Origin: a virus
Taxonomy: Duplodnaviria; Heunggongvirae; Uroviricota; Caudoviricetes
Reading direction: 5' to 3' (one strand)
DNA: 64,000 bases
Virus record (IMG/VR): IMGVR_UViG_3300044678_001935
Span: 35,982-99,981 of that record
In this document: in pieces, positions 703-63,155 of the stretch
Position numbering within the stretch: position 1 is the stretch's first letter
How the letters are laid out: each line of letters begins with the position of its first letter
The notes under the pieces: model-generated
What the model was told of the DNA's origin: nothing
Databases searched by the model: none
Seen by the model: only the letters and a program-made list of their open reading frames with translations
Made by a program: the position numbers and the translations under genes

Positions 703-745
703 TACCAACACACTTCCTAGCCATTCTTTAATCCATAAAACGCGC

Positions 746-774: not shown

Positions 775-796
775 GGGGCTTCAGTTGAAGAAGAAA

Positions 797-4467: not shown

Positions 4468-4485
4468 TAACAACACAAGAAAATT

Positions 4486-5100
4486 ATGAAAGAATTTACA
4501 CCGAATCAGGCGATTGTTGATCCCGAAACACACGAAAAAGTAGTTAAACTACTTGATAGGATTAAAGATGAGGCAGAAAAATCCAAGTGGGTCTGGGAAG
4601 ATGTTCCACCAGAGGAAGACGATTATATTGAATCCTATAATATTAGTTTTGATTTTGACTTGTTAGAAATTTTAGAGAAAAGGATTCTCGATGATAAAAA
4701 TTCAACGCCATGGGAAACTGTTATAATAAAACGTGGGAATTGTGAGACTTCATACTATAGGCAATTTAAAACCGAGGAAAGTTATAAAAATTATCTAAGT
4801 GAGCATAAAAAATATACTAAAGAAATTGCGCCTTATATTTTTGGTTATTGTAAGACTGCGTGTGGAATCTATAAAAACAAGTCATTAGAATTTCAGGATC
4901 TCAAATTTAAATCCTTTGATAATCTGATTACACATCTTAAAAAATTAACTGAAGATAAAAATATTATTCTAGTACGCTTCGGATATGCACATTTTGAGTT
5001 TAAAACTATTCTTGACGATAAACTTGGATTTAAGGATACTATTGAATTAGAAGAGCCCGATTCTTACTTCTACATCAAATTCGCTCTTGTAGACAAGTAA
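4486..5100 (+). CDS. hypothetical protein
   Basis: 204-aa acidic ORF. Confidence 0.45.
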   Translation: MKEFTPNQAIVDPETHEKVVKLLDRIKDEAEKSKWVWEDVPPEEDDYIESYNISFDFDLLEILEKRILDDKNSTPWETVIIKRGNCETSYYRQFKTEESYKNYLSEHKKYTKEIAPYIFGYCKTACGIYKNKSLEFQDLKFKSFDNLITHLKKLTEDKNIILVRFGYAHFEFKTILDDKLGFKDTIELEEPDSYFYIKFALVDK

Positions 5101-5209
5101 AATTATGAGTATTATTTTTGCGTGATTAATGGGCGAATAAATAAATCTGGGTTGGTAAACCCCTAAAGCTTCCATTTTTAAACACAACCATTTTAACTAA
5201 TTTAACAAC

Positions 5210-6172
5210 ATGTTTTCTGACTTTAAACAACTTAAAAAATCATCTTCAATCGGCTCATTAACTCAAAAACTTATTGAGCATTCCGAGAAACTATCAAAGG
5301 CTTCATCTACAAAAGACGATAGAATTTTTAGCGTAGATCGTGACAAAAAAACCGGAACTGGCTTTGCTATTGTACGGTTTATGCCACCACCGCCTAATGA
5401 GCCTAGCTCATGTGTTAAAATCGTAAATCACAATTTTAAGTATAACGGCAAGTATTTAAACGAGAATTGCCCAAATCACACTCCCGGAATCACCAAGAGA
5501 GATTGTCCTATTTGTGATTCTAATCGTGAACTTTGGGCAACAGAAGTTGAAACCAATAAGCAAATCGCATCACTAAGAAAGCTGCGAACTTCTTATTATA
5601 CTAACGTCTATATTGTTAAGAACCCAGCAAATCCAGAATTGGAAGGTCGGGTTATGCTTTATCGCTTCGGTGTTAAACTTTTTGAAAAAATTGAAAACGC
5701 CCGCAAGGAAAAGTATGTTGGGGATACCAATGTAATTGAACCGTATGATCTTTTTGACAGCGGTGCTAATTTCCGAATTGTTGTAAAAACTCAGGTTGAT
5801 TCTAAGAACAACAAAGAATTTCCTGAATATTCGGAATCCGGCTTTGAATCAAAAGGTGCTCTCTTTTCTGATGACACAAGACTAGAAGCCGTCTGGCGCC
5901 AGTGTCATTCTCTCCAGGAACTTATTTCACCAGAGAAGTTCCGCTCTTATGAAGATATTGAAAAAAGTCTTCGTCGGGTTATGGGAGTTTCTGCTAATTC
6001 TGTTCAGGCGCAAGAGGCTGAACTGGAAGAAGTTGCACAGGCGGTTAATGACGACTCCATTATGAGTGAACTAGAGGCTCATTATAAGAGCAAAAACAAT
6101 CCGCTAGATGAGGAAAATTCCTCGCTAGAAGATGCTCTTAAGGCCTTTGAAGAACTAGAGATGGACGACTAA
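5210..6172 (+). CDS. 32: ssDNA-binding protein gp32
   Basis: Segments align with T4 gp32: FAIVRFMPPP, the Zn site CPNHTPGITKRDCPICD (His/Cys ligands) and LYRFGVKLFEKI. It also has the acidic C-terminal tail. Confidence 0.9.
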   Translation: MFSDFKQLKKSSSIGSLTQKLIEHSEKLSKASSTKDDRIFSVDRDKKTGTGFAIVRFMPPPPNEPSSCVKIVNHNFKYNGKYLNENCPNHTPGITKRDCPICDSNRELWATEVETNKQIASLRKLRTSYYTNVYIVKNPANPELEGRVMLYRFGVKLFEKIENARKEKYVGDTNVIEPYDLFDSGANFRIVVKTQVDSKNNKEFPEYSESGFESKGALFSDDTRLEAVWRQCHSLQELISPEKFRSYEDIEKSLRRVMGVSANSVQAQEAELEEVAQAVNDDSIMSELEAHYKSKNNPLDEENSSLEDALKAFEELEMDD

Positions 6173-29475: not shown

Positions 29476-30870
29476 ATGACCTATCCTAACAGAGAACTAT
29501 CACAGTTTGCATCATTTTTAAAAGTTAATGATGTAAATCAAAAAATAGCAATAACAACCTCAGCAACCCCTTATATTGGTATTGGTTTAACTAATCCTTC
29601 TGAAAAGTTAGAAGTATTGGGTAACATAAAAGCCAGTGGTGTTGTGAGCGCAACTCAATATTTTGGTGATGGAAGTTCTTTGAGCAATGTAACTGCTATT
29701 GTGAATGGATATTTTGTTAATACTGTATCTGGTATTTGGACTGGATCCAGTGTCGGAATTGGAACTACACTTTTTCCTAATAAGTTAAATGTTAATGGAA
29801 ATGTTGGTGGATTTATTTTTTACTCTAATGCGCCGATTGGAACTGCACCTCTTAATGTTCAATCAACAACGAGAGTTAATAATCTCAATGTTCAATTTTT
29901 AGATGGTCTATCCGCACCTTCTAGTAATATTGTCGGTGAGTCTGATGTTCAAACTCTGGAGAATAAGACTCTTGTTCAGCCTGATATATCCATAATTAAA
30001 AATGGTTCGGCTAGTTTAACGGTGCCATCCACATCTGGCACTTTAATTAGTTCTGGATCTAGTGGTATTATTACCAGTGGAATGTATGCAAGTGGAAGTA
30101 TAAACGATTCTGTTATTTCTGTTGGCGCTGGAATTTCTTATGCTAAATTAAATCTAGGTAGTGCTATTAAGTCTTCTGATATTGATCCGAATAACAGAAT
30201 TCAAAATAATAAGTTAGTAAATAGTACGATCTCTGGAGTTTCTCTTGGTAGTAATTTATTAAATTTAGTTGCTGGTAGTTATATTGACGGTGGTTCTTAT
30301 AATGGCTCAGGTATTGTTACTTTTTCCATTCGGGCTAGTGTTGATAATGTTGCGAATACTCTTGTTGCTAGAGATGCAAATGGTAATGTAAATATTCAGG
30401 GTGCTAATTTTAACGGATCTATTCCTATTGGTGGAATTATTATGTGGAGTGGTGCGACTGTTCCTTCTAGTTGGGCATTATGTAATGGTGCTACTGTTAA
30501 TGGTGTTGCGACTCCAGATTTAAGAGATCGTTTTATTGTTGGTTCAGGTTCTGCTTATAACATTGGTAACACTGGTGGTGCGAATGCCGTTACTTTGAGT
30601 ATAGCTCAGATGCCGGCACACGCTCATGGCGGAGTGACTAACACCGATTTTCCAGATCACACACATAACGTTTCATTCCAAACAGAAAATGTGCCGAAGA
30701 ACCCAGGCCAAACATCGGTTATAACACCTAAACCTAATCTCAATTTCACTGTCGGGAGCAGCGGAGCCACATCTAGACACCAACACTCAATTAGCGCCGA
30801 GGGTGGTTCCAGCGCACATGAAAACCGTCCACCATATTATGCTTTGGCTTTTATTATGCGAGTTCAATAA
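29476..30870 (+). CDS. tail fibre protein with a C-terminal phage tail-collar domain
   Basis: C-terminus GGIIMWSGATVPSSWALCNGATVNG..PDLRDRFIVGSG...LSIAQMPAHAH matches the tail-collar (Collar) domain signature W..C.G..LPDLRGRF...LP.H.H. The N-terminus has fibre-type IGIG..KLEVLG motifs. Confidence 0.6.
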   Translation: MTYPNRELSQFASFLKVNDVNQKIAITTSATPYIGIGLTNPSEKLEVLGNIKASGVVSATQYFGDGSSLSNVTAIVNGYFVNTVSGIWTGSSVGIGTTLFPNKLNVNGNVGGFIFYSNAPIGTAPLNVQSTTRVNNLNVQFLDGLSAPSSNIVGESDVQTLENKTLVQPDISIIKNGSASLTVPSTSGTLISSGSSGIITSGMYASGSINDSVISVGAGISYAKLNLGSAIKSSDIDPNNRIQNNKLVNSTISGVSLGSNLLNLVAGSYIDGGSYNGSGIVTFSIRASVDNVANTLVARDANGNVNIQGANFNGSIPIGGIIMWSGATVPSSWALCNGATVNGVATPDLRDRFIVGSGSAYNIGNTGGANAVTLSIAQMPAHAHGGVTNTDFPDHTHNVSFQTENVPKNPGQTSVITPKPNLNFTVGSSGATSRHQHSISAEGGSSAHENRPPYYALAFIMRVQ

Positions 30871-31023
30871 CGAAGATAAGAATCTTACCACAGAAACTCA
30901 AGACTGTCAATCCTCCGTGTGTCAATTCCAGAATCGGCATAGTGAAGGTTGACAGTTTCCCGTTTAGGGTGTAGGATCAGCCTTGTCAGCGTTGATGAAC
31001 ATTTACTATCTAATTAACTACTT

Positions 31024-31224
31024 ATGAATAAAACACTAAAGATTACTAATGGTATTGAATCATTTGATATTGAATGTACAAATAAGATTCATACTAGAGT
31101 CAGCGAAGAATGCCTACTTCAGATGACTTATAAGAACAAAATTATTCCAGAACAGGTAGTTCTACAAGTTCTGTTAGAAGAATTAAAAATTGCAAACAAA
31201 GAAGATTGGTCACTATGTATCTAA
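31024..31224 (+). CDS. small hypothetical protein
   Basis: 66-aa ORF after a promoter-like TTGACA-17-TAGGAT at about 30947-30975. Confidence 0.3.
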   Translation: MNKTLKITNGIESFDIECTNKIHTRVSEECLLQMTYKNKIIPEQVVLQVLLEELKIANKEDWSLCI

Positions 31225-31442
31225 TTTCAATCTGGTTTAATGTTCTAAATGGAACCTCATCCAATCATGAATTTTTTCATTTGATTAATTCTGGTTGGTT
31301 AGAGATGAAATTTATAGAAAAGTATGGAGATAATCCATCAGAAGAAGTTTACTGGGAATGGATGTATGAACATGCTGAAACAATTTATATTTCACAACAA
31401 GACTACGATTACCTAACTCGTGATGATGTTTTAAGTGAATAA
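31206..31442 (+). CDS. small hypothetical protein
   Basis: 78-aa ORF. Confidence 0.3.
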   Translation: MVTMYLISIWFNVLNGTSSNHEFFHLINSGWLEMKFIEKYGDNPSEEVYWEWMYEHAETIYISQQDYDYLTRDDVLSE

Positions 31443-31779
31443 TTATTTTGTTCGTCGTCGGGTCGCATTGAATCCTAAAACATTACCAGAAATCTTAGAA
31501 GGTCTGGCTAATGATAAGGATTGGAGTGTTCGTATTGAGGTTGCAGAAAATTCCAACACACCACCAGAAACCTTAGAACGGCTGGCTGATGATGAGAGTT
31601 CTTTTGTTCGTAGCTGTGCTGTACGAAATCCCAACACACCACCAGAAACCTTAGCTCGTCTGGCTAATGATGAGGATTGGTATGTTCGTCTTGGGGTTGT
31701 AATTAATCCCAACACACCACAATACATTAGAACTTATCTTAAAATTAAAAAGCTTCTGAATTATTATGAGCAATTATGA
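31435..31779 (+). CDS. LRV/HEAT-like repeat protein (26-aa repeats NPNTPPETLERLANDxDxxVRxxVA)
   Basis: GTG start within GTGAATAATTATTTTG. It has three 78-nt repeats and the conserved C-terminal tail NPNTPQYIRTYLKIKKLLNYYEQL. Confidence 0.55.
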   Translation: MNNYFVRRRVALNPKTLPEILEGLANDKDWSVRIEVAENSNTPPETLERLADDESSFVRSCAVRNPNTPPETLARLANDEDWYVRLGVVINPNTPQYIRTYLKIKKLLNYYEQL

Positions 31780-32053
31780 GCTAGCGAGGAGTCGCAACAC
31801 CACACCAGAAACATTAGAACGTCTGGCTAATGATGTGAATGCCACTGTTCGTTGTGAGGTTGCAGAAAATATCAACACACCACAAGAAAGTTTAAAAAAT
31901 CTGGCAAATGATAATAATCGGACTGTTGCGTATTATGCTAGAAATAATAAAAATTATAATAATCCAATGAAACTAGAGACCTTTGAGTTTTTTGAATGGG
32001 TGGAAAATGCAAGCATAGAAGATCTAGAGAACTTTGCAAATAAAGAATTGTGA
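31766..32053 (+). CDS. LRV/HEAT-like repeat protein
   Basis: Starts MSNYELA inside the conserved junction TTATTATGAGCAATTATGA. Repeats ETLERLANDVNATVRCEVAENINTP. Confidence 0.55.
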   Translation: MSNYELARSRNTTPETLERLANDVNATVRCEVAENINTPQESLKNLANDNNRTVAYYARNNKNYNNPMKLETFEFFEWVENASIEDLENFANKEL

Positions 32054-32403
32054 AAACTATTATTGCCGGATCAAGAAATTGTAATAACATAAAAGAATTA
32101 ATAAAAGCTATTGAAGATTGTAATTGGGTAATAACAACAGTAATAAGTGGAAAAGCTAAGGGTGCTGATACATTAGGTGAATTGTGGGCCAAATATATGA
32201 AGGTTCCTATTATTGAATTTCCAGCCGATTGGAAAACTTATGGTAGATCCGCCGGCCCCCGTAGAAATATTCAAATGGCAGATAATGCAGAAGCTCTTAT
32301 TGCATTATGGGATGGTGAGAGTCGTGGAACAAAACACATGATAAGTGTAGCCGAAGAAAAACAACTATTGGTACACGTCCATAAATTCTGTTGTGACGGT
32401 TGA
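32050..32403 (+). CDS. SLOG/DUF2493 (YspA-like) domain protein
   Basis: IIAGSRNC...ISGKAKGADTLGELWA..VPIIEFPADWKTYGRSAGPRRNIQMAD..ALIALWDGESRGTKHMI matches the DUF2493 consensus GsR..GGA.GaD..A..WA...PAdW..G..AGp.RN..M. GTG start overlapping the upstream TGA. Confidence 0.6.
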   Translation: MKTIIAGSRNCNNIKELIKAIEDCNWVITTVISGKAKGADTLGELWAKYMKVPIIEFPADWKTYGRSAGPRRNIQMADNAEALIALWDGESRGTKHMISVAEEKQLLVHVHKFCCDG

Positions 32404-32424
32404 AAAACTGTCACTTCTTTTCGT

Positions 32425-32895
32425 TTGTGGGTGGTAATCGCTGTTATTCTATTCGGAGAGTTCACGAGAAGAATGTTTTCTGAAGAAGATACTGCGCGAT
32501 GTTGGGATGCACAAAATCCTAAAACCACACCAGAAACCTTAGATCGTCTGGCTAACGATAAGAGTAATCTGGTTCGTCGTAGGGTTGCAGAAAATCCCAA
32601 TACACAATCAGAAACATTAGAACGTCTAGCTGATGACGACGATTATTGGGTTCGTTTTCGGGTTGCAATTAATCCCAACGCACCACCAGAAGCCTTAGAA
32701 CGGCTGGCGAATGATAAGGATTCTTCTGTTCGTTGGTATATTGCAAGAAATCCTATCACACCACCAGAAGTTTTAGAACTTATGGCTAATGATAGGGATT
32801 GGGATGTTCGTTGGCAGGTTGCAAGAAATCCTAACACACCGCAATACATTATAACGTATCTTAAAATCAAGGAGTTTCTGAATTATTATGAGTAA
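32425..32895 (+). CDS. LRV/HEAT-like repeat protein
   Basis: Four 26-aa repeats and the C-terminal NPNTPQYIITYLKIKEFLNYYE. The true start may be the internal ATG at 32473 (MFSEEDTARC). Confidence 0.5.
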   Translation: MWVVIAVILFGEFTRRMFSEEDTARCWDAQNPKTTPETLDRLANDKSNLVRRRVAENPNTQSETLERLADDDDYWVRFRVAINPNAPPEALERLANDKDSSVRWYIARNPITPPEVLELMANDRDWDVRWQVARNPNTPQYIITYLKIKEFLNYYE

Positions 32896-33205
32896 TTATG
32901 ATCTAGCAAGAAATTCCAACACATTACCAGAAGCTTTAGATCGTCTGGCTAATGATAACGATTATTGGGTTCGTCAATATGTTGCATATAATCCATCCAC
33001 GCCACCAGAAGCTTTAGAACGTCTGGCTAATGATAAGTATCCATGTATTCGTTGTGGGGTTGCATGGAATCCCAACACACTACCAGAAATATTAGTTAAT
33101 ATGTCTAATGATAAGTATATTTATATTCGTAGCTGTGTTGCAAATAATCCCAGCACACCACAATACATTAGAACATATCTTAAACTCAACCAAAACAATT
33201 TTTGA
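32888..33205 (+). CDS. LRV/HEAT-like repeat protein
   Basis: Starts MSNYDLA at the junction TTATTATGAGTAATTATGA, overlapping the upstream stop by 8 nt. Confidence 0.55.
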   Translation: MSNYDLARNSNTLPEALDRLANDNDYWVRQYVAYNPSTPPEALERLANDKYPCIRCGVAWNPNTLPEILVNMSNDKYIYIRSCVANNPSTPQYIRTYLKLNQNNF

Positions 33206-33206
33206 C

Positions 33207-34460
33207 ATGTCTTTGAGCGCCATTAAACTCCGCCCACAACAGACCGAAGCTCTTGGTATTATGGAAGAGCATAATAAAGTTCGGGTTATTGCTGCAACAT
33301 CAGCGGGTAAGAGTTACATCATCTTCTTTGATATTCATAAGAAAGCGAAGAATAAAGAGAACTCTTTGTTTGTTATCGTAAGCTCTCGTATTCTACTCCT
33401 TCAACAACTAGAGAAAGAATATTCTAAACTATTTGATAATACTCATATCGTTCATATGCACTCTGGAGAAGCCAAAAGCCGTAAGATTACAGATTATCTT
33501 GAGTTCAGTTATTGGGCAGAAGTCACCGAAGGACCTAAGATTGTTTTTGTAACTTATCATTCTCTTAAGAAGATCGTTAAGAGTGAGATGAATATTGATG
33601 CTCTATATTTGGACGAATGCCACAATGGAGCTAAGAGTCACTTCTTTGAGTATATTAAAGGAGTTGAACCTTATTGTAATAATCTTTACAGTTTCACCGC
33701 TGCTCCTCGTTATCATCCAGATCCTACAAAAAACGGTAACAACAACTCAGAAGTTTTTGGTAGTCAAGTTTATAATGTTAATACTCTTGATTTGATCAAG
33801 AATGGTTCTATTCTTCCACCAAAATCCCAAACCATGAGAATTCCTTCCGTGCGGGATAAGAAGCAGAACCCTCATGAGAGTGATTATTATACTCTTATGG
33901 ACTATCTTTATAATAACGATAATACCGAGAGAGTTCTTATTACTTGCCCCTCTTCAAGATCACTTATGGATTTGATTTGTCTTACTGATTTTTTGAAAGA
34001 TTTGAATGATAGTGGTTATGATGTATTTCATATCACATCAAAATATGGTGCCTTCCATAATAAGACAAAGATTAAACGGTCAGAATTCTTGAATCGGATG
34101 GAAGAGTATGGGGAGCAAAATAAAAAATTTGTCGTTCTCCATTATAGTATCTTGACCGAAGGTTGGAGTAATAATTCCATTCAGGCATCTATTCTCATGC
34201 GACAACAACAATTGGGTGCTACAATTCAAAATATTGGTAGGACACTACGGATTGGCCATTCAGATATTGATCGTATTCAAAAAGGGGAGTTGACTGCTGG
34301 TGATTATGATAATTATGAAAAGCCCTGTGGTAACATAATCATTCCAGTATATGAGAACGTGGGTTCTAACATTGAAGAACAGGTAGATTTTGTTATTGAC
34401 GAGGTTTTTACCAAAGGTAATTATGTTCACGATCTTATTAATGAGAAAAAGAAGTCATGA
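33207..34460 (+). CDS. superfamily 2 DEAD/DEAH-type helicase
   Basis: Motif I AATSAGKS, motif II LDECH, and a C-terminal helicase domain with QN.GRTLR. The in-frame ATG at 33207 is preferred over the track start at 33108, which overlaps the upstream gene. Confidence 0.65.
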   Translation: MSLSAIKLRPQQTEALGIMEEHNKVRVIAATSAGKSYIIFFDIHKKAKNKENSLFVIVSSRILLLQQLEKEYSKLFDNTHIVHMHSGEAKSRKITDYLEFSYWAEVTEGPKIVFVTYHSLKKIVKSEMNIDALYLDECHNGAKSHFFEYIKGVEPYCNNLYSFTAAPRYHPDPTKNGNNNSEVFGSQVYNVNTLDLIKNGSILPPKSQTMRIPSVRDKKQNPHESDYYTLMDYLYNNDNTERVLITCPSSRSLMDLICLTDFLKDLNDSGYDVFHITSKYGAFHNKTKIKRSEFLNRMEEYGEQNKKFVVLHYSILTEGWSNNSIQASILMRQQQLGATIQNIGRTLRIGHSDIDRIQKGELTAGDYDNYEKPCGNIIIPVYENVGSNIEEQVDFVIDEVFTKGNYVHDLINEKKKS

Positions 34461-34801
34461 ATAATGAAGGATTGAAAATATTACAGGCGTCTAATACCAA
34501 CACACCAACAGAAATCTTAGAACGTCTGGCTAATGATGGGGATTATTATGTTCGTTCTCGGGTTGCATCTAATCACAACACATCACCAGAAACCTTAGAA
34601 CGTCTGGCTAATGATGATTTTGTGGATGTTCTTTATTGGGTTGCAGAAAATCCCAACACTCCGTCAGAAATCTTAGAACGTTTGGCTAATGATGGTTCTT
34701 GGTTTGTTCGTTGTGGGGTTGCAAATAATCCCAATACACCTCAATACATTATAACATATCTTAAAATCAAGAAGTTTCTGAATTATTATGAGCAATTATA
34801 A
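34457..34801 (+). CDS. LRV/HEAT-like repeat protein
   Basis: ATGA overlap with the helicase stop. Repeats TEILERLANDGDYYVRSRVASNHNT.., C-terminus NPNTPQYIITYLKIKKFLNYYEQL. Confidence 0.55.
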   Translation: MNNEGLKILQASNTNTPTEILERLANDGDYYVRSRVASNHNTSPETLERLANDDFVDVLYWVAENPNTPSEILERLANDGSWFVRCGVANNPNTPQYIITYLKIKKFLNYYEQL

Positions 34802-35336
34802 TCCCAACATATCACCAGAAACATTAGCTAGTCTGGCTAATAATGATTATGGGGTTGTTCGTTTTGGGGTTGCAACAAATCCTAACACACCACCAGAAGC
34901 ATTAGAACTTCTGGCGAATGATGATCATATTGATGTTCGTCGTGGGGTTGCAGTGAATCCCAACACACCACCAGAAACATTAGAACTTCTGGCTAATGAT
35001 GAGAATGTTGGTGTTCGTGTGAGGGTTGCAGGAAATCTCAACACACTACCAGAAGCATTAGAACGTCTTGCTAATGATGGCGATTATTATGTTCGTTATT
35101 GGGTTGCATCAATTACCAACACACCACCAAAAATATTAGTTATTATGGCTAACGATAAGCATTCTCATGTTCGTAGCTGTGTTGCATCTAATACCAATAC
35201 ACCACCAGAAGCCTTAGAACGTCTGGCTAATGATAATAATTGGCTTGTTCGTTGGCAGGTTGCATATAATCCCAACACTCCCCAATACATTCTAACTTAT
35301 CTTAAAATCAAGGAGTTTCTGAATTATTATGAGTAA
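34788..35336 (+). CDS. LRV/HEAT-like repeat protein
   Basis: 182 aa with six repeats, starting MSNYNPN at the conserved junction. Confidence 0.55.
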   Translation: MSNYNPNISPETLASLANNDYGVVRFGVATNPNTPPEALELLANDDHIDVRRGVAVNPNTPPETLELLANDENVGVRVRVAGNLNTLPEALERLANDGDYYVRYWVASITNTPPKILVIMANDKHSHVRSCVASNTNTPPEALERLANDNNWLVRWQVAYNPNTPQYILTYLKIKEFLNYYE

Positions 35337-35338
35337 TT

Positions 35339-35581
35339 ATGAGTAATTATGATCCCCACACATCAACAGAAACATTAGATCGTCTGGCTAATGATGAAGA
35401 TTTGGAAGTTCGTTGTCAGGTTGCACAAAATCCCAATACACCACCAGAAGCATTATCACGTCTGGCTGATGATAAGAGTTATTATGTTCGTTCTGGGGTT
35501 ACATTTAATCCCAACACACCTCAATACATTCTAACTTATCTTAAAATCAAGAAGTTTCTGAATTATTATAAATTATTATGA
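35339..35581 (+). CDS. LRV/HEAT-like repeat protein
   Basis: Preceded by a duplicated junction ATGAGTAATT x2 (35329-35348) that creates a 5-codon mini-ORF MSNYE. Confidence 0.5.
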   Translation: MSNYDPHTSTETLDRLANDEDLEVRCQVAQNPNTPPEALSRLADDKSYYVRSGVTFNPNTPQYILTYLKIKKFLNYYKLL

Positions 35582-35910
35582 CTAATTACGATATAGCAAA
35601 AAATCTCAATACATCAATAGAAACCTTAGAACGTCTGGCTAATGATGACGATTGTTGTGTTCGTTGTGGGGTTGCAGAAAATCCCAACACACCACCAGAA
35701 GCATTAGCACGTCTGGCGAATGATAATAGTTATTATGTTCGTGGCTGGGTTGCAAGAAATCCCAATACACCACCAGAAGCCTTAGAACGTCTGGCTAATG
35801 ATAATAATTGGCTTGTTCGTTGGCAGGTTGCATTTAATCCCAACACCCCCCAATACATTCTAACTTATCTCAAAGTTAGACAGTTTCTGAGGTGTCACAC
35901 TAGAACCTAA
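35578..35910 (+). CDS. LRV/HEAT-like repeat protein
   Basis: Starts MTNYDIAKN and carries four repeats. Confidence 0.55.
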   Translation: MTNYDIAKNLNTSIETLERLANDDDCCVRCGVAENPNTPPEALARLANDNSYYVRGWVARNPNTPPEALERLANDNNWLVRWQVAFNPNTPQYILTYLKVRQFLRCHTRT

Positions 35911-35956
35911 AAACTCACAGGGGGTGCTATTATGGATTCATAATTCAGCTCAAACC

Positions 35957-36700
35957 ATGACCAATTACGTTTTTATCGGAGACGTTCACTCTCAATTCTC
36001 CAAATTTTCCGCAGCGGTGGATTGGATTCAAAATAATGTGAAAGATTATCACATTATTCAAGGTGGTGATCTCTTTGATTCTAGGTCAGAGGAATCTAAT
36101 TCTATGTTAGTTTATAATCTTGTTAAACTATTGGAGGATCGTATTACGGTTCTACATTCAAATCATCATATTAAACTCTATAAGATTCTAACACAAGAAA
36201 ATAATAACATGCAAAATCTGGAGAGTCTTCATAGGACTGTTATAGATTTTGATTTTGATAATAACAAAAGTCTGAAAGACGAGATCGTGAATTGGTTAGA
36301 AACCCTTCCTTACGGCGTCTCTTTTAAAGATCAGACGGGATTGGAATATAGGGCCTGCCATGCTTATTGGTTCAAAAAGCTTTATGTGCCGAATGAGTAT
36401 GAAGGACTTTATCCCATTCATGAAGTTTCAGCAAAAGCCAAGGGGCAGATGTTGTATGGAATTAGCCGAAAAGGAGAAGACGGTGGAAATGAAAGGATTT
36501 TGTGGTGGAGTAATATCAATAATTCTTATTGTGGAGAGAAAGAAGAATTTGTAAGAGTTTCTTTTCATTATCATACAGTATCTTTGGATATTGAAGGAAC
36601 TTCGGGACGAAAGCATCTGATTTTGGATGGATCTTGTGGTGACAAAGGTGGAGAATTGGTTGTCTATGATGTAAGCAATCATAGATGTGTCAGATTTTAA
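35957..36700 (+). CDS. calcineurin-like metallophosphoesterase
   Basis: Motifs FIGDVHSQ (GDxHG), GGDLFDSR (GDxxDRG) and LHSNHH (GNHE-like). The in-frame ATG at 35957 is preferred over the track start at 35924. Confidence 0.65.
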   Translation: MTNYVFIGDVHSQFSKFSAAVDWIQNNVKDYHIIQGGDLFDSRSEESNSMLVYNLVKLLEDRITVLHSNHHIKLYKILTQENNNMQNLESLHRTVIDFDFDNNKSLKDEIVNWLETLPYGVSFKDQTGLEYRACHAYWFKKLYVPNEYEGLYPIHEVSAKAKGQMLYGISRKGEDGGNERILWWSNINNSYCGEKEEFVRVSFHYHTVSLDIEGTSGRKHLILDGSCGDKGGELVVYDVSNHRCVRF

Positions 36701-37522
36701 AGTGGCACACCAGCAACACAAACTCTTCACTCATCGTGTTATTCTTATTGAAACTTTGGAGGACCAATGGAACTGAATGCTTTTCTGAATCAATTGATTA
36801 TTGATCTTGAAGATGTCTGTGATGACATTGAATTTGACTTCGGCAATAATACTGTCCCGGAAGAAAAAGTTCGCCAGATCAAAAAGGCCGTTGAGGATTT
36901 TCATAATGAAATTTAAAGTTGCTTATCAACGACCCAAAAAGAAAAAGGGTTTCTATGTCAAAGAAGAAGTTGTTTTTTATGACATTGAATCTGCTGTCTT
37001 CTATGAGTCGGAGATGACCAAACGAGGATCCAAGAACTTTAAAATTACCCCAATTTAGGAGAATCTCATGACTGCTTTGGTTGAAACACTGTTACCTAGG
37101 ATCACCAGCATTGAAGCATTTTTTTCTGATGGTGAATGGTGGGCTAGCATTCGCTATAGTGATGGAGGTGAAGATGAGTTTGGACCTTTTGACACTAAAG
37201 AGAAAGCTGAAGGAGTTATCTTTTGATGATTTTGAATCCGCTCTTTATGTTTTTTCTGACGAATTCGGGTTTTTATCTTCCGATCAGATGTTGATCTTGG
37301 ATGTTGTATGCCTTAGTCCTCTACACGTAGAGGATTTTCTAGATATTTTTCTTTATACGAGGATATTAAATTCATGACTAAAATAACTACAGAACAAAAA
37401 CAACAGAAGACCGAAGTAAATGAACTATCGGAAAAATTTCTAGAGTATATGGAGGATGTCATTCGTGATGACGAGGAATACGAATATCCTGAATACGATG
37501 ATGCACCCTCATCTTTTTAATC

Positions 37523-39470: not shown

Positions 39471-40007
39471 TTGGCTATGTATGAAGATTATTCTAAAAAA
39501 CAATTAGCTCTTCTGGCTAATGATAAACATTATTATGTTCGTTGTGGTGTTGCAAATAATCCCAACACACAACCAGAAACATTAGATCGTTTAGCGAACG
39601 ATGAGCATCTGCATGTTCGTAGATATGTTGCACGAAATCCAAACACACCACCAGAAGCCTTAGATCGTCTGGCTAATGATGAGGATTCTTGGGTTCGTCT
39701 TGGGGTTGCAAGACATCCCAACACACCACCAGAAGTTTTAGAATGTTTGGCTAATGATAAGGATTATTCTGTTCGTTGTTGGGTTGCGAGAAATCCCAAC
39801 ACAACACCAGAAACCTTAGATCGTCTGGCTAATGATGAGCATTATTATGTTCGTACGCCGGTTGCATTTAATCCCAACACACCACCAAAAAGCTTAGAAC
39901 GTCTGGCTAATGATGAGGATTGGTATGTTCGTTTTGGAGTTACAATAAATCCCAGCACACCTCAATACATTAAAACCTATCTTAAAATTTTAAAATTATT
40001 CAAATGA
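39471..40007 (+). CDS. LRV/HEAT-like repeat protein
   Basis: 178 aa with six 26-aa repeats. C-terminus NPSTPQYIKTYLKILKLFK. Confidence 0.55.
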   Translation: MAMYEDYSKKQLALLANDKHYYVRCGVANNPNTQPETLDRLANDEHLHVRRYVARNPNTPPEALDRLANDEDSWVRLGVARHPNTPPEVLECLANDKDYSVRCWVARNPNTTPETLDRLANDEHYYVRTPVAFNPNTPPKSLERLANDEDWYVRFGVTINPSTPQYIKTYLKILKLFK

Positions 40008-41282: not shown

Positions 41283-41609
41283 ATGAGTAATTATGAGCTA
41301 GCGAGGAGACGTAACACTCCACCAGAAGCATTATCACGTCTGGCTAATGATAAGGATTCTTATGTTCGTCGTGGGGTTGCATGGAATCCCAAGACCCCTC
41401 TAGAAACCTTAGATCGTCTGGCTAATGATAAGGATTCTTGGGTTCGTGGTGAGGTTGCATTTAATCCCAACACACCACCAGAAGTTTTAGAACGTCTGGC
41501 TAATGACGAGTATCGGTATGTTCGTCGTTTGGTTGCCAAAAATCCCAACACGCCACAATACATTAGAACATATCTTAAAATTACCGAGGTTTTGAATTAT
41601 TATGAGTAA
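41283..41609 (+). CDS. LRV/HEAT-like repeat protein
   Basis: MSNYELARRRNTPPEALSRLANDKDSYVRRGVA.. with C-terminal NPNTPQYIRTYLKITEVLNYYE. Confidence 0.55.
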   Translation: MSNYELARRRNTPPEALSRLANDKDSYVRRGVAWNPKTPLETLDRLANDKDSWVRGEVAFNPNTPPEVLERLANDEYRYVRRLVAKNPNTPQYIRTYLKITEVLNYYE

Positions 41610-41928
41610 TTATGAGCTAGCAGATAATCCCAACACCCCACCAGAAACATTAGAAAGTCTAGCGAATGACGATAATTGGTATGTTCGTAGCTGTGTGGCA
41701 TTTAATCCCAACACACCACCAGAAGCTTTAGAACGTCTGGCTGATGATGAGGATTTAAATGTTCGTTATTATGTTGCAAGAAATCCCAACACATTACCAG
41801 AAACCTTAGCTCGTCTGGCTAAGGATGAGGATTGTCGTGTTCGTCGTTGGGTTGCAAGAAATCCTAACACACCACAATACATCAAAGATTATCTTAAAAT
41901 CAAGGGGTTTTTGGGTTGTTATGAGTAA
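41602..41928 (+). CDS. LRV/HEAT-like repeat protein
   Basis: Starts at the conserved 8-nt overlap junction; four repeats. Confidence 0.55.
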   Translation: MSNYELADNPNTPPETLESLANDDNWYVRSCVAFNPNTPPEALERLADDEDLNVRYYVARNPNTLPETLARLAKDEDCRVRRWVARNPNTPQYIKDYLKIKGFLGCYE

Positions 41929-42100
41929 TATTGAACTAGCAGGAAATCCCAACACACCACCAGAAACCTTAGATCTTCTGGCTAATGATAATATTTGGAA
42001 TGTTCGTTATTTGGTTGCAAAAAATCCCAACACTCCACAATACATTAGAACATACCTTAAACTTCAAAGGACGATTGGTGGACTGTCCACAAGAAGTTGA
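41921..42100 (+). CDS. short LRV/HEAT-like repeat protein
   Basis: MSNIELAGNPNTPPETLDLLANDNIWNVRYLVAKNPNTPQYIRTYLK. The in-frame ATG sits at the junction TTATGAGTAATATTGA; the track ORF starts upstream at 41825. Confidence 0.4.
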   Translation: MSNIELAGNPNTPPETLDLLANDNIWNVRYLVAKNPNTPQYIRTYLKLQRTIGGLSTRS

Positions 42101-45426: not shown

Positions 45427-45609
45427 ATGCACACCATAGAACTTTTTACTTTTAAAGACGCTATACATCTTTTTAACATAGAAATGCAGATTGTTCCCAT
45501 TGCTGGAGATTATATTAAGTATAATTACATCTTATACAAAGTTATTGAAAGAGGTTTTGAAGTTTTTCCGGCTACAACTATTCGTCTTTACGTAGAAGAA
45601 ACCAAATGA
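45427..45609 (+). CDS. small hypothetical protein
   Basis: In-frame ATG within track ORF 45391..45609, downstream of repeat copy B. Confidence 0.3.
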   Translation: MHTIELFTFKDAIHLFNIEMQIVPIAGDYIKYNYILYKVIERGFEVFPATTIRLYVEETK

Positions 45610-46223
45610 ATTACACCGAAGAACAAGTTAAAGAAATCGTCAGAAATGTCATTTCTGAGATGCAATCTGTAAATGTTAAGGATCTTACACTTTACCAAAA
45701 AAGGGGTGTTGCAAGAAATCCCAATACAGCACCAGAAGTCTTAGACCGTCTGGCTAATGATAAGGATTCTTATGTTCGTTGGCAGGTTGCAGAAAATCCC
45801 AACACACCACCAGAGACCTTAGAACGTCTGGCTAATGATGACGATTATTGTGTTCGTTGGAGTGTTGCATTTAATCCCAACACACCACCAGAAACATTAG
45901 CTCGTCTAGCTAATGATGTGGATTATTGTGTTCGTACGCCGGTTGCATTTAATCCCAACACACCACCAGAAGTTTTAGAACGTCTGGCTAATGATAACGA
46001 TTCTGTGGTTCGTTATTATGTTGCAAGAAATCCCAACACATTAACAGAAACTTTAGAACGTTTGGCTAATGATAAGAGTTCTTCTGTTCGTGAATGTGTT
46101 GTACAAAATCCTAACTACAAACGGAAATCCAACAATAAGATCACTATTGAGCTTACAGAAGAACAGTTGTCTCAATTACGAAAATGTGCAGACATGTTCT
46201 CTGGTCTTTTAGGATCTGTATAA
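45606..46223 (+). CDS. LRV/HEAT-like repeat protein
   Basis: 205 aa with six 26-aa repeats, a unique N-terminal 30 aa and a unique C-terminal 35 aa (no NYYE tail). Confidence 0.55.
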   Translation: MNYTEEQVKEIVRNVISEMQSVNVKDLTLYQKRGVARNPNTAPEVLDRLANDKDSYVRWQVAENPNTPPETLERLANDDDYCVRWSVAFNPNTPPETLARLANDVDYCVRTPVAFNPNTPPEVLERLANDNDSVVRYYVARNPNTLTETLERLANDKSSSVRECVVQNPNYKRKSNNKITIELTEEQLSQLRKCADMFSGLLGSV

Positions 46224-46250: not shown

Positions 46251-46505
46251 ATGGAAAAACTAAAATTCGTTGAAACCATTCTTGATCGGCTACAAGAATA
46301 TTCTATATCTCATCCACAACATGATACAGATGATGTGCTTAGCAAAGCACGAAAAGAACTTGAAAAACTTAATAAAAATTATGTTTTGATTGAAAACACT
46401 GAACATATTAAACTTTTGGACAATCAACGCACTCTTTATGCTCTTCATCGTGGTGGTGTTGATAATTGGGAATGGTATGACGAGTCTTTGAGCAGTTTGG
46501 ACTGA
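46251..46505 (+). CDS. hypothetical protein
   Basis: 84-aa ORF. Confidence 0.35.
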   Translation: MEKLKFVETILDRLQEYSISHPQHDTDDVLSKARKELEKLNKNYVLIENTEHIKLLDNQRTLYALHRGGVDNWEWYDESLSSLD

Positions 46506-48207: not shown

Positions 48208-48322
48208 AGAGCGAGTAGCTCAGGGGTAGAGCAACGTAATAACAAATCTCGTTTGAGATTTTAACAGCAATCAAAACCGCATGTTAAGCCGTAGGCCCCA
48301 GGTTCAAATCCTGGCTCGCTCA
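48208..48322 (+). tRNA. tRNA-like gene with a roughly 42-nt insertion between the D and T arms (isotype unresolved)
   Basis: Perfect 7-bp acceptor GAGCGAG/CTCGCTC, D arm GCTC-AGGGGTA-GAGC and T arm CCAGG-TTCAAAT-CCTGG. The central region is 65 nt instead of about 23 and contains the hairpin AAATCTC-GTTT-GAGATTT (48243-48260). Confidence 0.4.
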
Positions 48323-55175: not shown

Positions 55176-56234
55176 ATGAAAAAATACGATGCGGTGGTTT
55201 TCATCGGCAGGTTTCAACCTTTCCATAACGCTCATTTTGATATTATCAAAAAAGCTTATGAGCTAACTGATTATGTAATTCTTATCGCGGGTTCTCAGTA
55301 TCAACCACCTAGCTATAAGAATCCATTTCAGGCTTTAACTTTTGACGGTTATTTTGATTCAATTGGAAAAACCATTGATAATTATCTTAGAGTTAACTTT
55401 GAGGATTATTATGACGAAGACCGTAACTATGAGTTCTCGTTTTGTTTTCAACGAGATATTTACGGTGATAATCTCTGGTGCAAAAGTGTACAGGAAAAAG
55501 TATCAGAATTATTCTTAGGTCAAGAAGCTGAAATAGCCATTATTGGTTGTAATAAGGATGAAAGTTCTTATTACTTAAATATGTTCCCTCAGTGGGATCT
55601 TATTGAGGTTCCTCTGGATCAAAACCTTAGTGCTACACAGATCAGAGAACTTTATTTCGTTGAAGAACCAAATATGAGTTTTCTTCAAGGTGTTGTATCG
55701 TCTGAGGTTTTTAATTATCTTGACGAACACAAAAATACCGAATGGCACAATAATATCGTAAACGAACGAAATTTTATTGAAAAATACAAAGCCCAATATG
55801 CTTCTTTCCCATATCCACCAACATTCGTTACTGTAGATTCTGTAGTATTTCAATCCGGTCATGTTCTCGTTGTTCGGAGAAATGCTTATCCTGGTAAAGG
55901 TCTTATTGCTCTTCCTGGTGGATTCTTAGACGCTAATAGTGATGCCTCTTTGGAAGATGCTATGATTAGAGAACTGAGAGAGGAAACAGGGCTTAAAGTG
56001 CCAACTCCGGTTCTCAAGGGATCTATTAAAGATGTTAAAGTTTTTGATTCTCTTTATAGAAGCTCTCGTGGACGGACTATTACTCATGCTCATAACATTG
56101 TATTGTCTGATGGAGAACTACCTAGAGTCAAAGGTGATTCTGATGCTGATAAGGCTTTCTGGTTACCATTCAGCCAACTTAAATCAGAGCAATTTTTTGA
56201 AGACCATTATCAAATTATCAATTATTTTCTATGA
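55176..56234 (+). CDS. natV: bifunctional NMN adenylyltransferase / Nudix hydrolase (NadM-Nudix, NatV-like)
   Basis: N-terminal GRFQPFHNAH (the H/TxGH nucleotidyltransferase motif) and a C-terminal Nudix box GGFLDANSDASLEDAMIRELREETGL. Confidence 0.8.
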   Translation: MKKYDAVVFIGRFQPFHNAHFDIIKKAYELTDYVILIAGSQYQPPSYKNPFQALTFDGYFDSIGKTIDNYLRVNFEDYYDEDRNYEFSFCFQRDIYGDNLWCKSVQEKVSELFLGQEAEIAIIGCNKDESSYYLNMFPQWDLIEVPLDQNLSATQIRELYFVEEPNMSFLQGVVSSEVFNYLDEHKNTEWHNNIVNERNFIEKYKAQYASFPYPPTFVTVDSVVFQSGHVLVVRRNAYPGKGLIALPGGFLDANSDASLEDAMIRELREETGLKVPTPVLKGSIKDVKVFDSLYRSSRGRTITHAHNIVLSDGELPRVKGDSDADKAFWLPFSQLKSEQFFEDHYQIINYFL

Positions 56235-56431
56235 TTATGAATCAAGTGCAACTGAGTAAAATGTCAAGAGAAGAAAAACTTAAGGCATTGGCTTTAATTG
56301 ATAAAAACATTGAGACAACAAAACTTAAATTAAGCCAATTACATCATGAAGCCTATAAGTTGCAATATGAATTAGGTTATTACGCTAAAAAAGAAATCCT
56401 TTATGGAATTAAATATGATGTTCAAAATTAA
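56231..56431 (+). CDS. small hypothetical protein
   Basis: 66-aa ORF with ATGA overlap to natV. Confidence 0.3.
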   Translation: MIMNQVQLSKMSREEKLKALALIDKNIETTKLKLSQLHHEAYKLQYELGYYAKKEILYGIKYDVQN

Positions 56432-56951
56432 TAAAAATCGAAACTTCCTAGAAGACTATAAGAAATATTATTTCTTTTATGATACTCCATTGTCAAATTG
56501 GGCAGGTTATTCTTTTGTTGATACAACAACTGGAGTTTCTTACAATTGCTCAGAACAGTTTATGATGCACAAGAAGGCCCTACTTTTTTCTGATTATAAT
56601 ACTGCCGGCAAGATCATGAATAAAGAATACCCAGGAGATCAAAAAGCCTTGGGTAGAATGGTGGCAGGCTTTGATGTTAGCATTTGGAATGAATATGCAA
56701 GAGATCTTGTGTATGAAGGATGTTATTATAAGTTTACCCAAAATAAGGAAGCTTATGAATATCTTATGGGGACAGAAGGTTATCTTCTAGTAGAGGCATC
56801 ACCAACAGATACTATTTGGGGTATTGGACTTGGAGGTTATGATGCAGATAATCAAGATCCTAAAAATTGGAGAGGAACTAACTGGTTGGGTGAAGTTCTT
56901 ACACAACTACGAGAAGATTTGAAAGATAACCCAGAGTTAGTTTTATTCTAG
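56403..56951 (+). CDS. NADAR (DUF1768, YbiA-like) domain protein
   Basis: ..NCSEQFMMHKKALLF..KALGRMV..WNEYARDLVYEGCYYKFTQNKEAYEYLMGTEGYLLVEASPTDTIWGIGLGG matches the NADAR pattern (EH....K......LGR...W......M......KF.QN..L...LL.T...L.E.SP.D..WG.G). Confidence 0.65.
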   Translation: MELNMMFKINKNRNFLEDYKKYYFFYDTPLSNWAGYSFVDTTTGVSYNCSEQFMMHKKALLFSDYNTAGKIMNKEYPGDQKALGRMVAGFDVSIWNEYARDLVYEGCYYKFTQNKEAYEYLMGTEGYLLVEASPTDTIWGIGLGGYDADNQDPKNWRGTNWLGEVLTQLREDLKDNPELVLF

Positions 56952-57027
56952 TCAGATGTAAAGACTTTAAAACATAATTCAACGATAGACGTTGAATTTT
57001 ATCCACTATCATTTTAAGGAGTTTAAA

Positions 57028-62738: not shown

Positions 62739-63155
62739 ATGCTTATTGATGATTCGTTTATTTACATTCTTAAAAGCGATGCGAGGAAAATAGTCGCTCA
62801 AATTATTACAGTTCCTGAAGTTTTAGCTCGTTTAGCTAAGGATAATAATTCTAATGTTCGTTGTCATGTTGCATGGAATCGCAACACACCACCAGAAGCA
62901 TTAGAACGTCTGGTTAATGATGATGATGATTGGGTTCGTTATTATGTTGCACAAAATCCCAACACATCAACAGAAACCTTAGAACGTTTGGCTAATGATA
63001 GGAGTTCTTCTGTTCGTGCGAATGCTACATGTAATCCCAATTATAAAAAACCTAACACCATTCATTTCACAAATGAGCAAATGGTAGCACTAAAATCTTT
63101 GATTGAAAGTGCTAGTAACCCACATCTTCAGGAATTTCTTAAAAATGCTGATTGA
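62739..63155 (+). CDS. LRV/HEAT-like repeat protein
   Basis: 138 aa. Repeats PEVLARLAKDNNSNVRCHVAWNRNTPPEALERLVNDDDDWVRYYVAQNPNT. Unique C-terminus. Confidence 0.5.
   Translation: MLIDDSFIYILKSDARKIVAQIITVPEVLARLAKDNNSNVRCHVAWNRNTPPEALERLVNDDDDWVRYYVAQNPNTSTETLERLANDRSSSVRANATCNPNYKKPNTIHFTNEQMVALKSLIESASNPHLQEFLKNAD

Follow-up and report, generated by a model that had tools for sequence, protein, structure and literature searches.

Why would a T4-like phage carry a large set of short genes built almost entirely from one repeat, and what could such a set do? The question arises from a 64,000-nt stretch of a Caudoviricetes genome (positions 35,982 to 99,981 of the IMG/VR record IMGVR_UViG_3300044678_001935; hereafter the window, whose own coordinates are used throughout), in which a repeat of 26 amino acids (aa) of the leucine-rich repeat variant (LRV) type recurs in arrays of open reading frames (ORFs). 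Our analysis points to 17 real, translated genes that would form one fast-evolving family of small soluble LRV proteins, HEAT-like alpha-solenoids in which variation is concentrated on one face of one helix. We lean towards the view that these proteins are variable cytoplasmic binders of host or competitor factors, perhaps acting in counter-defence, a view that draws largely on analogy with known binder scaffolds.

LRV family membership, coding status and fold

The window holds 17 LRV ORFs (16 complete and one truncated at base 64000), every one on the + strand, and all of them lie in six arrays at 31435-33205, 34457-35910, 39471-40007, 41283-42100, 45606-46223 and 62739 to beyond 64000. Tandem Repeats Finder called a 78-nt array at each of these intervals, which are the ones listed in the first-pass annotation of this DNA; the span of 31435-35910 under which that annotation had filed the family takes in only the first two of the six, and its count of at least 18 genes came down to 17 by a motif scan and a hidden Markov model (HMM) of the unit. 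The HMM was built from 53 in-register units. Together with the motif scan it detects 55 units (26 aa/78 nt) in the 17 ORFs, all in ORF frame, and it finds no further repeat units outside these ORFs in the 64-kb window. In a six-frame motif scan, the core L..LA(N/K/D)D occurred only on the + strand and within the array intervals, bar two chance matches. The unit alignment bore out the proposed consensus, NPNTPPE(T/A)LERLANDxDxxVRxxVAx. The complete proteins have 59-205 aa and 1-6 repeats each. Shared termini had also been described, and here the picture is mixed: 13 of the 16 complete genes carry the tail NPNTPQYIxTYLK..., the remaining three having other terminal modules in its place, and an MSNY(D/E)LA-type N-terminus is found in just 10 of the 17.

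These ORFs behave as genes and not as incidental products of a DNA repeat. Across 53 units the coding frame is free of stops, against 43-169 in the other five. At the nine most variable codons, base frequencies predict 24.4 stops and none was observed (P ~8e-12), even though the commonest codons at the variable sites, TAT, TGG and TGT, are each one mutation from a stop. The LRV genes are under selection to stay open, and their status as real genes, as opposed to a satellite, is upheld. They also lie as close together as the genes of an ordinary phage operon. Antisense ORFs of 63-94 aa (- strand; ...GVLGF..SLARRSK...) run through the arrays at 31443-31727, 32643-32870, 39533-39724, 41360-41563 and 63274-63543. 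The antisense frames contain 43-78 stops over the 53 units and are open in some units only, and we take these ORFs for by-products of the repeat.

The scaffold of the unit is near-invariant at N1, T4, E7, L9, L12, A13, D15, V20, R21, V24 and A25. One codon dominates each scaffold position, frequently a codon that is rare in this genome: CTG supplies 78% of Leu12 codons vs 7% in other genes, CCC 82% of Pro2 vs 11%, CGT 100% of Arg21 vs 16%, and TTA 98% of Leu9 vs 27%. When long tracts of recent duplication were sought, none exceeded ~80% identity over 300 nt, so recent whole-gene duplication does not account for the constancy of the scaffold. The likelier cause of the conservation at synonymous sites is short-tract homogenisation or selection for homology tracts.

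Membership of the LRV family is established, and in itself is not new. Each of the ten scanned members exceeds the gathering score of Pfam LRV (PF01816) (28.7-132.1 bits vs 21.6; E 1e-6 to 1e-39), and since the best stretches span model positions 1-26 of 26, the 26-aa period is compatible with this assignment. Most of the ten match LRV_2 as well; HEAT and HEAT_2 matches are secondary to LRV, and those to HEAT_2 and HEAT_EZ mostly fall below the gathering score. A profile of the family searched against PDB sequences with hmmsearch recovered 1lrv_A at E 2.6e-12 over four matched stretches, with a 2-residue gap in 1LRV at the NPNT turn (period 24 aa vs 26 aa in the phage). The AlphaFold2 model of gene 6 (182 aa; genes are numbered along the window) has a pLDDT of 95.2 and a pTM of 0.86, and comprises six helix pairs (helix A 7 residues, helix B 9) followed by a 15-residue C-terminal helix (166-180); its helix assignment, a DSSP string, pools alpha and 3-10 helices. 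Foldseek placed 1lrv first for this model (E 1.8e-6, TM 0.67, rmsd 3.1 over 163 columns, 31% identity), followed by PP2A-A HEAT repeats and artificial alphaRep binders (TM 0.65-0.70). The best matches in a viral structure library are already titled 'Leucine rich repeat variant [uncultured Caudovirales phage]'. The LRV-like solenoid proposed in the first-pass annotation is therefore confirmed by the two checks that it had suggested, a Pfam search and the structure prediction of one member, which gave a helix-turn-helix solenoid. Membership of the HEAT family was also considered and was rejected, given the secondary rank of the HEAT matches and a period of 26 aa against HEAT-type ~31-47 aa; the TM values to HEAT-like proteins suggest that the phage proteins work in the manner of HEAT binders, not that they belong to that family.

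A typical member consists of an N-terminal repeat remnant, 1-6 units of helix A, loop and helix B, and NPNTP followed by an amphipathic capping helix (QYIxTYLKIK). All tail-bearing genes keep the segment NPNTPQYIxTYLK(I/L), which makes up the amphipathic last helix of the model and is most simply a C-cap.

Variable positions and turnover between relatives

Variation within the unit is sharply positioned. Entropy reaches 2.1-3.6 bits at positions 16-19, 22, 23 and 26 and is below 1 bit at most scaffold positions. In the gene 6 model helix B comprises unit positions 18-26, so that 18, 19, 22, 23 and 26 share one side (an arc of ~140 degrees), with positions 16-17 in the A-B loop; by helical geometry, V20, R21, V24 and A25 lie on the opposite side of helix B. 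The variable positions are enriched in Trp (13-fold), Cys (10-fold), Tyr (4-fold) and Arg (2.3-fold) and depleted in Lys, Ala, Asp, Thr and Val. Each of the 53 analysed units has a unique seven-residue signature, and the nearest relative of a unit usually sits in a different array. Between units, raw pN/pS comes to 1.45 at hypervariable and 0.51 at scaffold codons, these values being raw proportions over saturated, non-independent paralogous units and not the output of a formal codon model. In 317 unique units drawn from 71 other viral loci, the same positions are again hypervariable and show the same bias in residues. A diversifying role had been suggested for the family, and it fits both the hypervariable helix face and this pattern of variation.

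The family also turns over rapidly between relatives. A metagenome scan with the window helicase as query yielded a single 2.4-kb locus (L014), in which the helicase gene is 98.2% identical to that of the window at the nucleotide level (21 synonymous and 13 nonsynonymous codon differences in 451 codons). The LRV gene upstream of it, in contrast, is 73% identical to gene 4, with 8 synonymous and 30 nonsynonymous differences in 86 codons; the differences fall mostly at variable positions, and the gene is closer (84%) to another paralog of the window. Downstream of the helicase, in the place of gene 5, L014 carries a different 2-repeat cassette. On a syntenic 18-kb contig the LRV genes at the three corresponding places differ in size, and genes of 75 and 50 aa occupy the place of gene 9 in a syntenic relative. 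Orthologs of gene 13 (P0047, P0062 and P0071) keep 33-36 of 37 N-terminal and 37-38 of 38 C-terminal residues (89-100%), but match at only 5-9 of 21 hypervariable residues and have 3 repeats vs 5. In the cassette comparison proposed in the first-pass annotation, cassettes, repeat number and variable residues thus differ despite near-identical flanking genes, a pattern that shows changes in repeat number and the swapping of cassettes between arrays.

More distant loci (L005-L007) have a consensus of their own, LEQLATDED, and a tail of their own, ...HYIKKYLKIQxHLKTL, which indicates lineage-specific homogenisation or expansion. In four further loci (L008-L010 and L013) no LRV genes lie near Thg1.

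What the LRV proteins may do

Membership of the LRV family by itself points to no mechanism, 1LRV having no assigned function. The Azotobacter vinelandii protein (PF01816/PF25591) shares with the phage proteins the motif P..L..La.D.d..VR..vA, besides the profile and structural similarity described above. The phage proteins differ from it in their 26-aa period with the NPNT turn, in the absence of the N-terminal Fe-S domain, in their much shorter length and in their dedicated C-cap helix, and they form a 17-gene family with position-specific hypervariability.

A closer guide to function may be found in designed and natural binders. In the alphaRep library, positions 18, 19, 22, 23, 26 and 30 were randomised because they are naturally variable, and crystal structures identify the randomised positions as the concave, target-binding face (PMC3754942). 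The phage set resembles this library in its two-helix solenoid, its N- and C-caps, its 1-6 internal repeats and its combination of a constant scaffold with a variegated surface, and the variable positions 18-19, 22-23 and 26 likewise lie on the second helix. The alphaRep proteins differ in being man-made and derived from a 31-aa PBS_HEAT repeat, not from LRV, whereas the phage set is natural and is encoded by separate genes in one genome. This parallel in the binding face is, by analogy, the strongest argument that the variable surface may serve in recognition.

The closest described phenomenon is the tandem hypervariable leucine-rich repeat (LRR) locus of Flavobacterium psychrophilum and related cases, including that of Dictyostelium purpureum (PMC10392669). 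These loci share with the arrays tandem paralogs of variable repeat number, one hypervariable face, recombination or rearrangement between repeats, and differences between strains. In D. purpureum the variable LRR positions are enriched in Y, D, C and N (PMC10392669). The features by which such a tandem hypervariable repeat-protein locus is recognised (PMC10392669) were all found here, namely 17 genes in six arrays, variation at fixed positions, and differences in repeat number and cassettes among relatives. The two systems differ in that the LRR proteins are beta/alpha horseshoes encoded in cellular genomes, with those of F. psychrophilum placed on the cell surface, whereas the phage proteins are all-alpha LRV solenoids with no evident signal peptide, encoded in a viral genome.

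Searches of the literature on LRV and phage, on PF01816 and on phage repeat multigene families found nothing relevant. The LRV fold and family are already known, as are single LRV genes annotated in uncultured phages. Short, capped LRV genes set out in dispersed tandem arrays within a T4-like phage clade appear to be undescribed in the literature searched, and the same appears to hold for position-specific hypervariability on one helix face and for cassette turnover between near-identical strains. Paralogous expansions of interaction repeats, with a presumed role in engaging host factors, occur in the ankyrin, MORN, F-box and BTB families of giant viruses and in the ankyrin genes of the Wolbachia phage WO. 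Their fold differs from that of the LRV set, and their hosts are eukaryotic (or, for phage WO, the host is an endosymbiont); we know of no description of these families as short, capped, single-domain genes coupled by stop/start overlaps.

The stacked repeats present a continuous surface that differs in every protein, and on this basis we propose that this variable surface would be the ligand-binding face, as in HEAT-like binders. The family may then constitute a repertoire of stoichiometric intracellular binders of host or competitor macromolecules, with targets in defence or takeover the likeliest. New specificities would arise by point substitution at the variable codons and by recombination between constant 45-nt blocks, which, as the comparison with relatives shows, changes the repeat number and swaps cassettes between arrays. 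Binding of this kind in the cytoplasm, perhaps with a counter-defence role, is the interpretation that we consider moderately probable, because architecture and residue usage resemble those of binders, turnover is like that of an arms race, and the neighbourhood of the genes fits.

Several points weigh against this interpretation. Binding is deduced from the pattern of variation and from analogy, and the variable face of the phage solenoid may be either concave, as in alphaRep, or convex. PADLOC and NCBIfam gave no functional match for the LRV members. The pN/pS values have the character of raw proportions noted above. Strong enrichment in Cys is unusual for a cytoplasmic protein-binding surface, and may stem in part from the codon neighbourhood (TAT, TGT, TGG, CGT) or from metal or redox chemistry. 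No neighbouring gene is consistently linked to the LRV genes by co-occurrence across the 71 viral loci, and the gp5.9-like gene and NAD+ salvage block of the window, described below, are weak evidence for counter-defence, a matter of guilt by association. Finally, promoter motifs of the sigma-70-like or T4-late kind do not mark the arrays.

If the proteins are binders, several consequences would follow. Phage counter-defence proteins are usually found singly and are mutually unrelated, whereas the LRV set would be a family on one scaffold, diversified at a defined surface. Each member would be a ready-made affinity reagent and a direct route to host targets, and the family as a whole would be a natural example of a virus that keeps a binder repertoire by recombination. 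The 26-aa unit would also offer a compact scaffold for protein engineering, with the permissive positions already mapped by nature. A bolder version of the binder interpretation, which we regard as possible but doubtful, is that of an anticipatory repertoire, a natural, recombination-maintained combinatorial library of alphaRep-like binders directed against the variable defence proteins of cyanobacterial hosts. The 45-nt blocks, identical at synonymous sites, would then act as tracts of homology by which variable patches are shuffled from gene to gene and from array to array, and each phage lineage would carry dozens of recognition surfaces. If true, this would be the phage-side counterpart of repeat-based immune repertoires such as variable lymphocyte receptors (VLR) and STAND and NLR sensors.

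Two alternatives are unlikely without being negligible. The proteins may be associated with the virion, either packaged and injected against host nucleases or used in the decoration or adaptation of tail fibres, with MSNY(D/E)LA as a targeting leader. Array 1 begins ~560 nt downstream of the tail-fibre genes, and the rapid turnover would fit an arms race with restriction systems. The internal-protein (IP) loci of T4-like phages are variable accessory genes between conserved modules that have a conserved short N-terminus and turn over rapidly, and the LRV arrays are alike in these respects, down to a shared N-terminal motif on variable proteins that recalls the capsid-targeting leader of T-even internal proteins. 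However, IP proteins are non-repeat and have a cleavable leader ending in (L/I)-x-E; MSNYELA lacks this motif of the T4 prohead protease, and the shared N-terminus is also explained by the duplicated stop/start junction between LRV genes. Five of the six arrays lie among non-structural genes, and the late promoter TATAAATA precedes none of the six.

The other improbable alternative holds that the variation is largely neutral, the proteins having one shared role (as a scaffold, chaperone, adaptor or C-cap module) while unequal crossing-over reshapes a hyperplastic region. Exposed solenoid positions do vary in most repeat families, the arrays lie in a plastic region rich in small ORFs, and single copies seem dispensable, as L008-L010 and L013 are without LRV genes near Thg1. 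Neutral drift is nevertheless hard to reconcile with the biased composition of the variable positions, with its excess of W, C and Y, and with the recurrence of this bias in the 317 units of other phages. Raw pN/pS exceeds 1 at variable positions only, the stops one mutation away from TAT, TGG and TGT are fully avoided, and orthologs differ mainly at variable positions and are 89-100% identical at their termini.

Still less probable is a role as modular readers of nucleic acids in the manner of TALE, PUF or PPR proteins, with genes 13 and 14 as DNA-binding regulators of the ribbon-helix-helix (RHH) type. Such readers also show hypervariation at fixed positions of a regular repeat, and Arg21 is invariant in the unit. 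A relative of genes 13 and 14, P0011, carries RHH_1 (PF01402), another, P0052, is named a CopG/RHH protein by JGI, and some homologs bear the JGI name AlkC, a DNA-binding HEAT-like glycosylase. Yet the isoelectric point is 4.2-6.5 in 14 of 16 LRV proteins, and with seven variable positions in each 26-aa unit, where aromatic residues and Cys prevail, the repeat is unlike known base-reading codes. The AlphaFold2 model of gene 13 (pLDDT 90.7), which represents a monomer, has a disordered linker and one C-terminal helix and is without a ribbon-helix-helix fold. The Pfam scan of the window proteins gave no RHH match at their C-termini, the RHH_7 matches being below threshold and inside the repeats. 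A role in DNA mimicry, suggested by the many acidic members, was rejected as a general explanation; isoelectric points range up to 9.4, and the variable face argues for specific recognition.

It is highly improbable that a diversity-generating retroelement or another form of templated mutagenesis writes the variable codons. The sharp localisation of variation on a nucleotide-conserved background would suit such a device, but no reverse transcriptase was found among the scanned ORFs of the window (not every ORF was scanned), many scaffold adenines (AAT, AAC, ACA, GAA, AAT, GAT) never change, and in the variable codons all three positions differ between units, with T and G dominant and no sign of derivation from A. 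Moreover, one template with one or two targets is usual, as against 55 units in 17 genes. A non-coding degenerate satellite or selfish repeat with incidental ORFs, to which the nucleotide-level conservation of the constant part of the unit (synonymous sites included) and the antisense ORFs, such as 31443-31727, might have pointed, is refuted for practical purposes by the single open frame out of six with its stop avoidance, the Pfam LRV matches and confident structural model, the conserved start/stop gene boundaries and the conserved non-repeat termini of orthologs.

Distribution, gene arrangement and neighbouring genes

The family is found in many uncultured large freshwater phages and is almost absent from cultured ones. 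A tblastn search of 50,697 GenBank phage records detected an LRV gene in Moorella phage MTATph1 alone, which has one copy, of 327 aa. In IMG/VR, an alignment query found 124 stretches in 71 loci that encode LRV relatives; a scan with a single LRV protein as query gave no match there, so that the alignment query was needed. These loci (<=21 kb) have a median of 3 LRV ORFs and a maximum of 9, nearly all on one strand. A collection of 5.8 billion proteins contains 122 LRV relatives, and the metagenome relatives form subfamilies by their non-repeat termini, which match those of window genes 2, 13 and 14. The first-pass annotation had called the expansion highly unusual for a T4-like phage, which is true with respect to the GenBank records; the 71 IMG/VR loci and the more than 100 metagenome proteins show that it is not unique to this genome.

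The tail motif occurs in none of 185,579 GTDB species genomes, and the repeat-consensus DNA pattern matches only the cyanobacterium [Phormidium] sp. LEGE 05292, which has ordinary large LRV proteins; there is thus no clear host homolog or donor in GTDB. In that genome (L015, 4127-7963), LRV proteins of 566 and 368 aa with irregular repeats flank, as judged by eye, a MoxR-like AAA+ ATPase gene. In a related 244-kb ENA contig (L003, 5185-6125), a ClpS gene (PF02617) lies directly upstream of a divergent 215-aa LRV gene and abuts it, an adjacency that could hint at a link to substrate delivery for proteolysis. Short-read contigs end within LRV arrays or have masked or N runs inside them, the examples being L088 (which ends at 11220, 258 nt into the LRV gene after the ligase), L014 and L003 (runs of N). 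Short-read assembly thus fails at the arrays, and viral catalogues probably contain too few of them.

Within the window, array 1 opens with gene 1 (31435-31779; 114 aa), whose GTG start lies inside a truncated repeat and which has 3 repeats and the C-cap tail (Pfam LRV E 3.8e-24). Gene 2 (31766-32053; 95 aa) begins with MSNYELA, has 2 repeats (E 1.4e-6) and ends in a distinct C-terminus, NPMKLETFEFFEWVENASIEDLE, that is common to the metagenome orthologs P0066, P0078 and P0100. Gene 3 (32497-32895) likely starts at ATG 32497 (the longest ORF begins at TTG 32425) and has 4 repeats and the tail ...KEFLNYYE (E 7.4e-26). Gene 4 (32888-33205; 105 aa), the last of the array, begins with MSNYDLA, has 3 repeats and a degenerate tail end, YLKLNQNNF, and its start overlaps the stop of gene 3 by 8 nt (ATGAGTAA, 32888-32895).

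In array 2, gene 5 (34457-34801; 114 aa) has 3 repeats and the tail (E 1.4e-21), gene 6 (34788-35336), the modelled member, has 6 repeats and the tail (E 3.5e-37), and gene 7 (35339-35581; 80 aa) has 2 repeats and the tail (E 6.6e-14). Gene 8 (35578-35910; 110 aa), with 3 repeats and a degenerate tail (E 5.4e-25), closes the array; its final repeat shares 97% identity with that of gene 6. Gene 9 (39471-40007; 178 aa), which starts at TTG 39471 or ATG 39477, is solitary, with 6 repeats and a degenerate tail (E 1.5e-39).

Genes 10 (41283-41609) and 11 (41602-41928) each encode 108 aa with MSNYELA, 3 repeats and the tail, gene 11 having an 8-nt stop/start overlap on each side. They precede gene 12 (41921-42100), the last in its array, which encodes 59 aa from ATG 41921 with MSNIELA, 1 repeat and a degenerate tail. 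Gene 13 (45606-46223; 205 aa; E 5.2e-33) has the N-terminal helix MNYTEEQVKEIV..., 5 repeats, a linker NPNYKRK and a C-terminal ITIELTEEQLSQLRK... helix that replaces the tail. Gene 14 (62739-63155; 138 aa) belongs to the gene 13 subfamily, with the N-terminus MLIDDSFIY, 3 repeats, an NPNYKK linker and the C-terminus ...LIESASNPHLQEFLKNAD; its orthologs are P0026, P0030 and P0056. Gene 15 (63152-63589) starts at TTG 63152 or ATG 63164 and has 4 repeats and the tail. Gene 16 (63582-63842; 86 aa), with the ortholog P0004, begins with MSNYDLDLDLA and has 2 repeats and the tail. Gene 17 (63835-64000) begins with MSNFDLA..., has at least 2 repeats and runs past the window end.

The junctions between these genes are themselves conserved. 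At 41588-41622 (+), for example, ...TTGAATTATTATGAGTAATTATGAGCTAGCA includes the upstream TAA within ATGAGTAA, whose ATG opens the next gene. The ATGAGTAA junction is also found at 32888, 41921, 63582 and 63835, with variants at 31766, 34788, 35339 and 35578, and a repeat search found 10-nt ATTATGAGTA micro-repeats. The final (K/E)FLNYYE of the tail is kept only where another LRV gene succeeds and is degenerate in the array-last genes 4, 8, 9 and 12. This decay suggests that the stretch is conserved not for the protein; it seems to be kept as a stop/start junction and duplication boundary. Judging from the sequence, the LRV genes would be expressed within operons and translationally coupled through stop/start overlaps, either ATGAGTAA or ATGA, the latter being the overlap of gene 5 with the helicase stop. 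A promoter-like TTAAAA-N17-TATTAT (9/12 matches) occurs in each LRV tail/junction (31739, 32861, 34761, 35302, 35541 and 41575; +), and since the ATG of the next gene overlaps the -10 element, this motif is probably a by-product of coding. Promoter and terminator scans of the window gave nothing above shuffled expectation. The T4-type late promoter TATAAATA is found before structural genes at 8169 and 27265.

As had been claimed, the window belongs to a T4-like myovirus: gp32, baseplate wedge, gp48-like and gp5-like proteins are all encoded, as are long tail fibres. Among the other products are CysRS, a class II aminoacyl-tRNA synthetase, a Thg1-like protein, NAMPT, an NMNAT-like/NUDIX protein, NADAR, a DNA ligase and tRNAs. 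G+C is ~36% across the window, so the arrays are not compositionally foreign. A megablast search of window 31000-37000 against GenBank phages gave no nucleotide match. Among cultured phages, the freshwater Synechococcus/Cyanobium phages B3 and B23 (244 kb; PMC7171214) come nearest, with gp32 54% identical. Metagenome contigs carry exact copies of the window gp32 and CysRS, and gp32 proteins at least 90% identical are found on a 244,048-bp ENA contig. The tail-fibre genes lie at 29476-30870, upstream of array 1, and the non-structural genes among which the other arrays lie include helicase, deaminase, Thg1, ligase and aminoacyl-tRNA synthetase genes.

Directly downstream of gene 13, an 84-aa ORF at 46251-46505 (+) matches Phage_T7_Gp5_9 (PF25708, RecBCD inhibitor) at 35 bits vs a cut-off of 24.5, and a gp5.9-like gene also succeeds an LRV gene in the syntenic contig. 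A NAD+ salvage block occupies 55176-59343 (+), with a cytidylyltransferase-like (NMNAT-type) and NUDIX gene at 55176-56234, NADAR at 56403-56951 and NAMPT at 56992-59343. The block can be likened to the NAD+ reconstitution pathways with which phages counter NAD-depleting defences.

The first-pass annotation had further proposed that the arrays form a coherent system with the SLOG, helicase, phosphoesterase and deaminase genes that they flank. The data do not support this idea, since in the 71 viral loci no neighbouring enzyme accompanies the LRV genes consistently; the helicase-LRV adjacency is kept only in close relatives, through synteny. The commonest LRV neighbours over these loci (L017-L087) are homologs of window 1-5100 and of gp32. 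LRV genes adjoin homologs of the window ORFs 40-702, 1317-2312 (exonuclease) and 2562-4467 in 13-15 of the 71 loci, and a gp32 homolog lies beside LRV genes in 10. Since LRV genes of other loci stand beside homologs of window 1-6172 and gp32, a further LRV array probably lies just upstream of the window start.

Three smaller observations concern genes within or between the arrays. The SLOG-family gene at 32050-32403 (+), inside array 1, matches Pfam YAcAr at E 6e-13 and overlaps the stop of gene 2 by GTGA, and a terminator-like hairpin (32393-32414) lies 3' of it, upstream of gene 3. The longest helicase ORF (33108-34460, +) overlaps gene 4 by 98 nt, and the true start is probably ATG 33207 (MSLSAIK...), 2 nt past the stop of gene 4, which would explain why the 450-aa sequence has no exact entry in the protein collection. 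Lastly, a third tRNA at 48209-48322 (+; 114 nt), unreported by ARAGORN, matches the full Rfam model (1-71) at 50.7 bits and may be a tRNA gene with an insertion or intron of ~40 nt.

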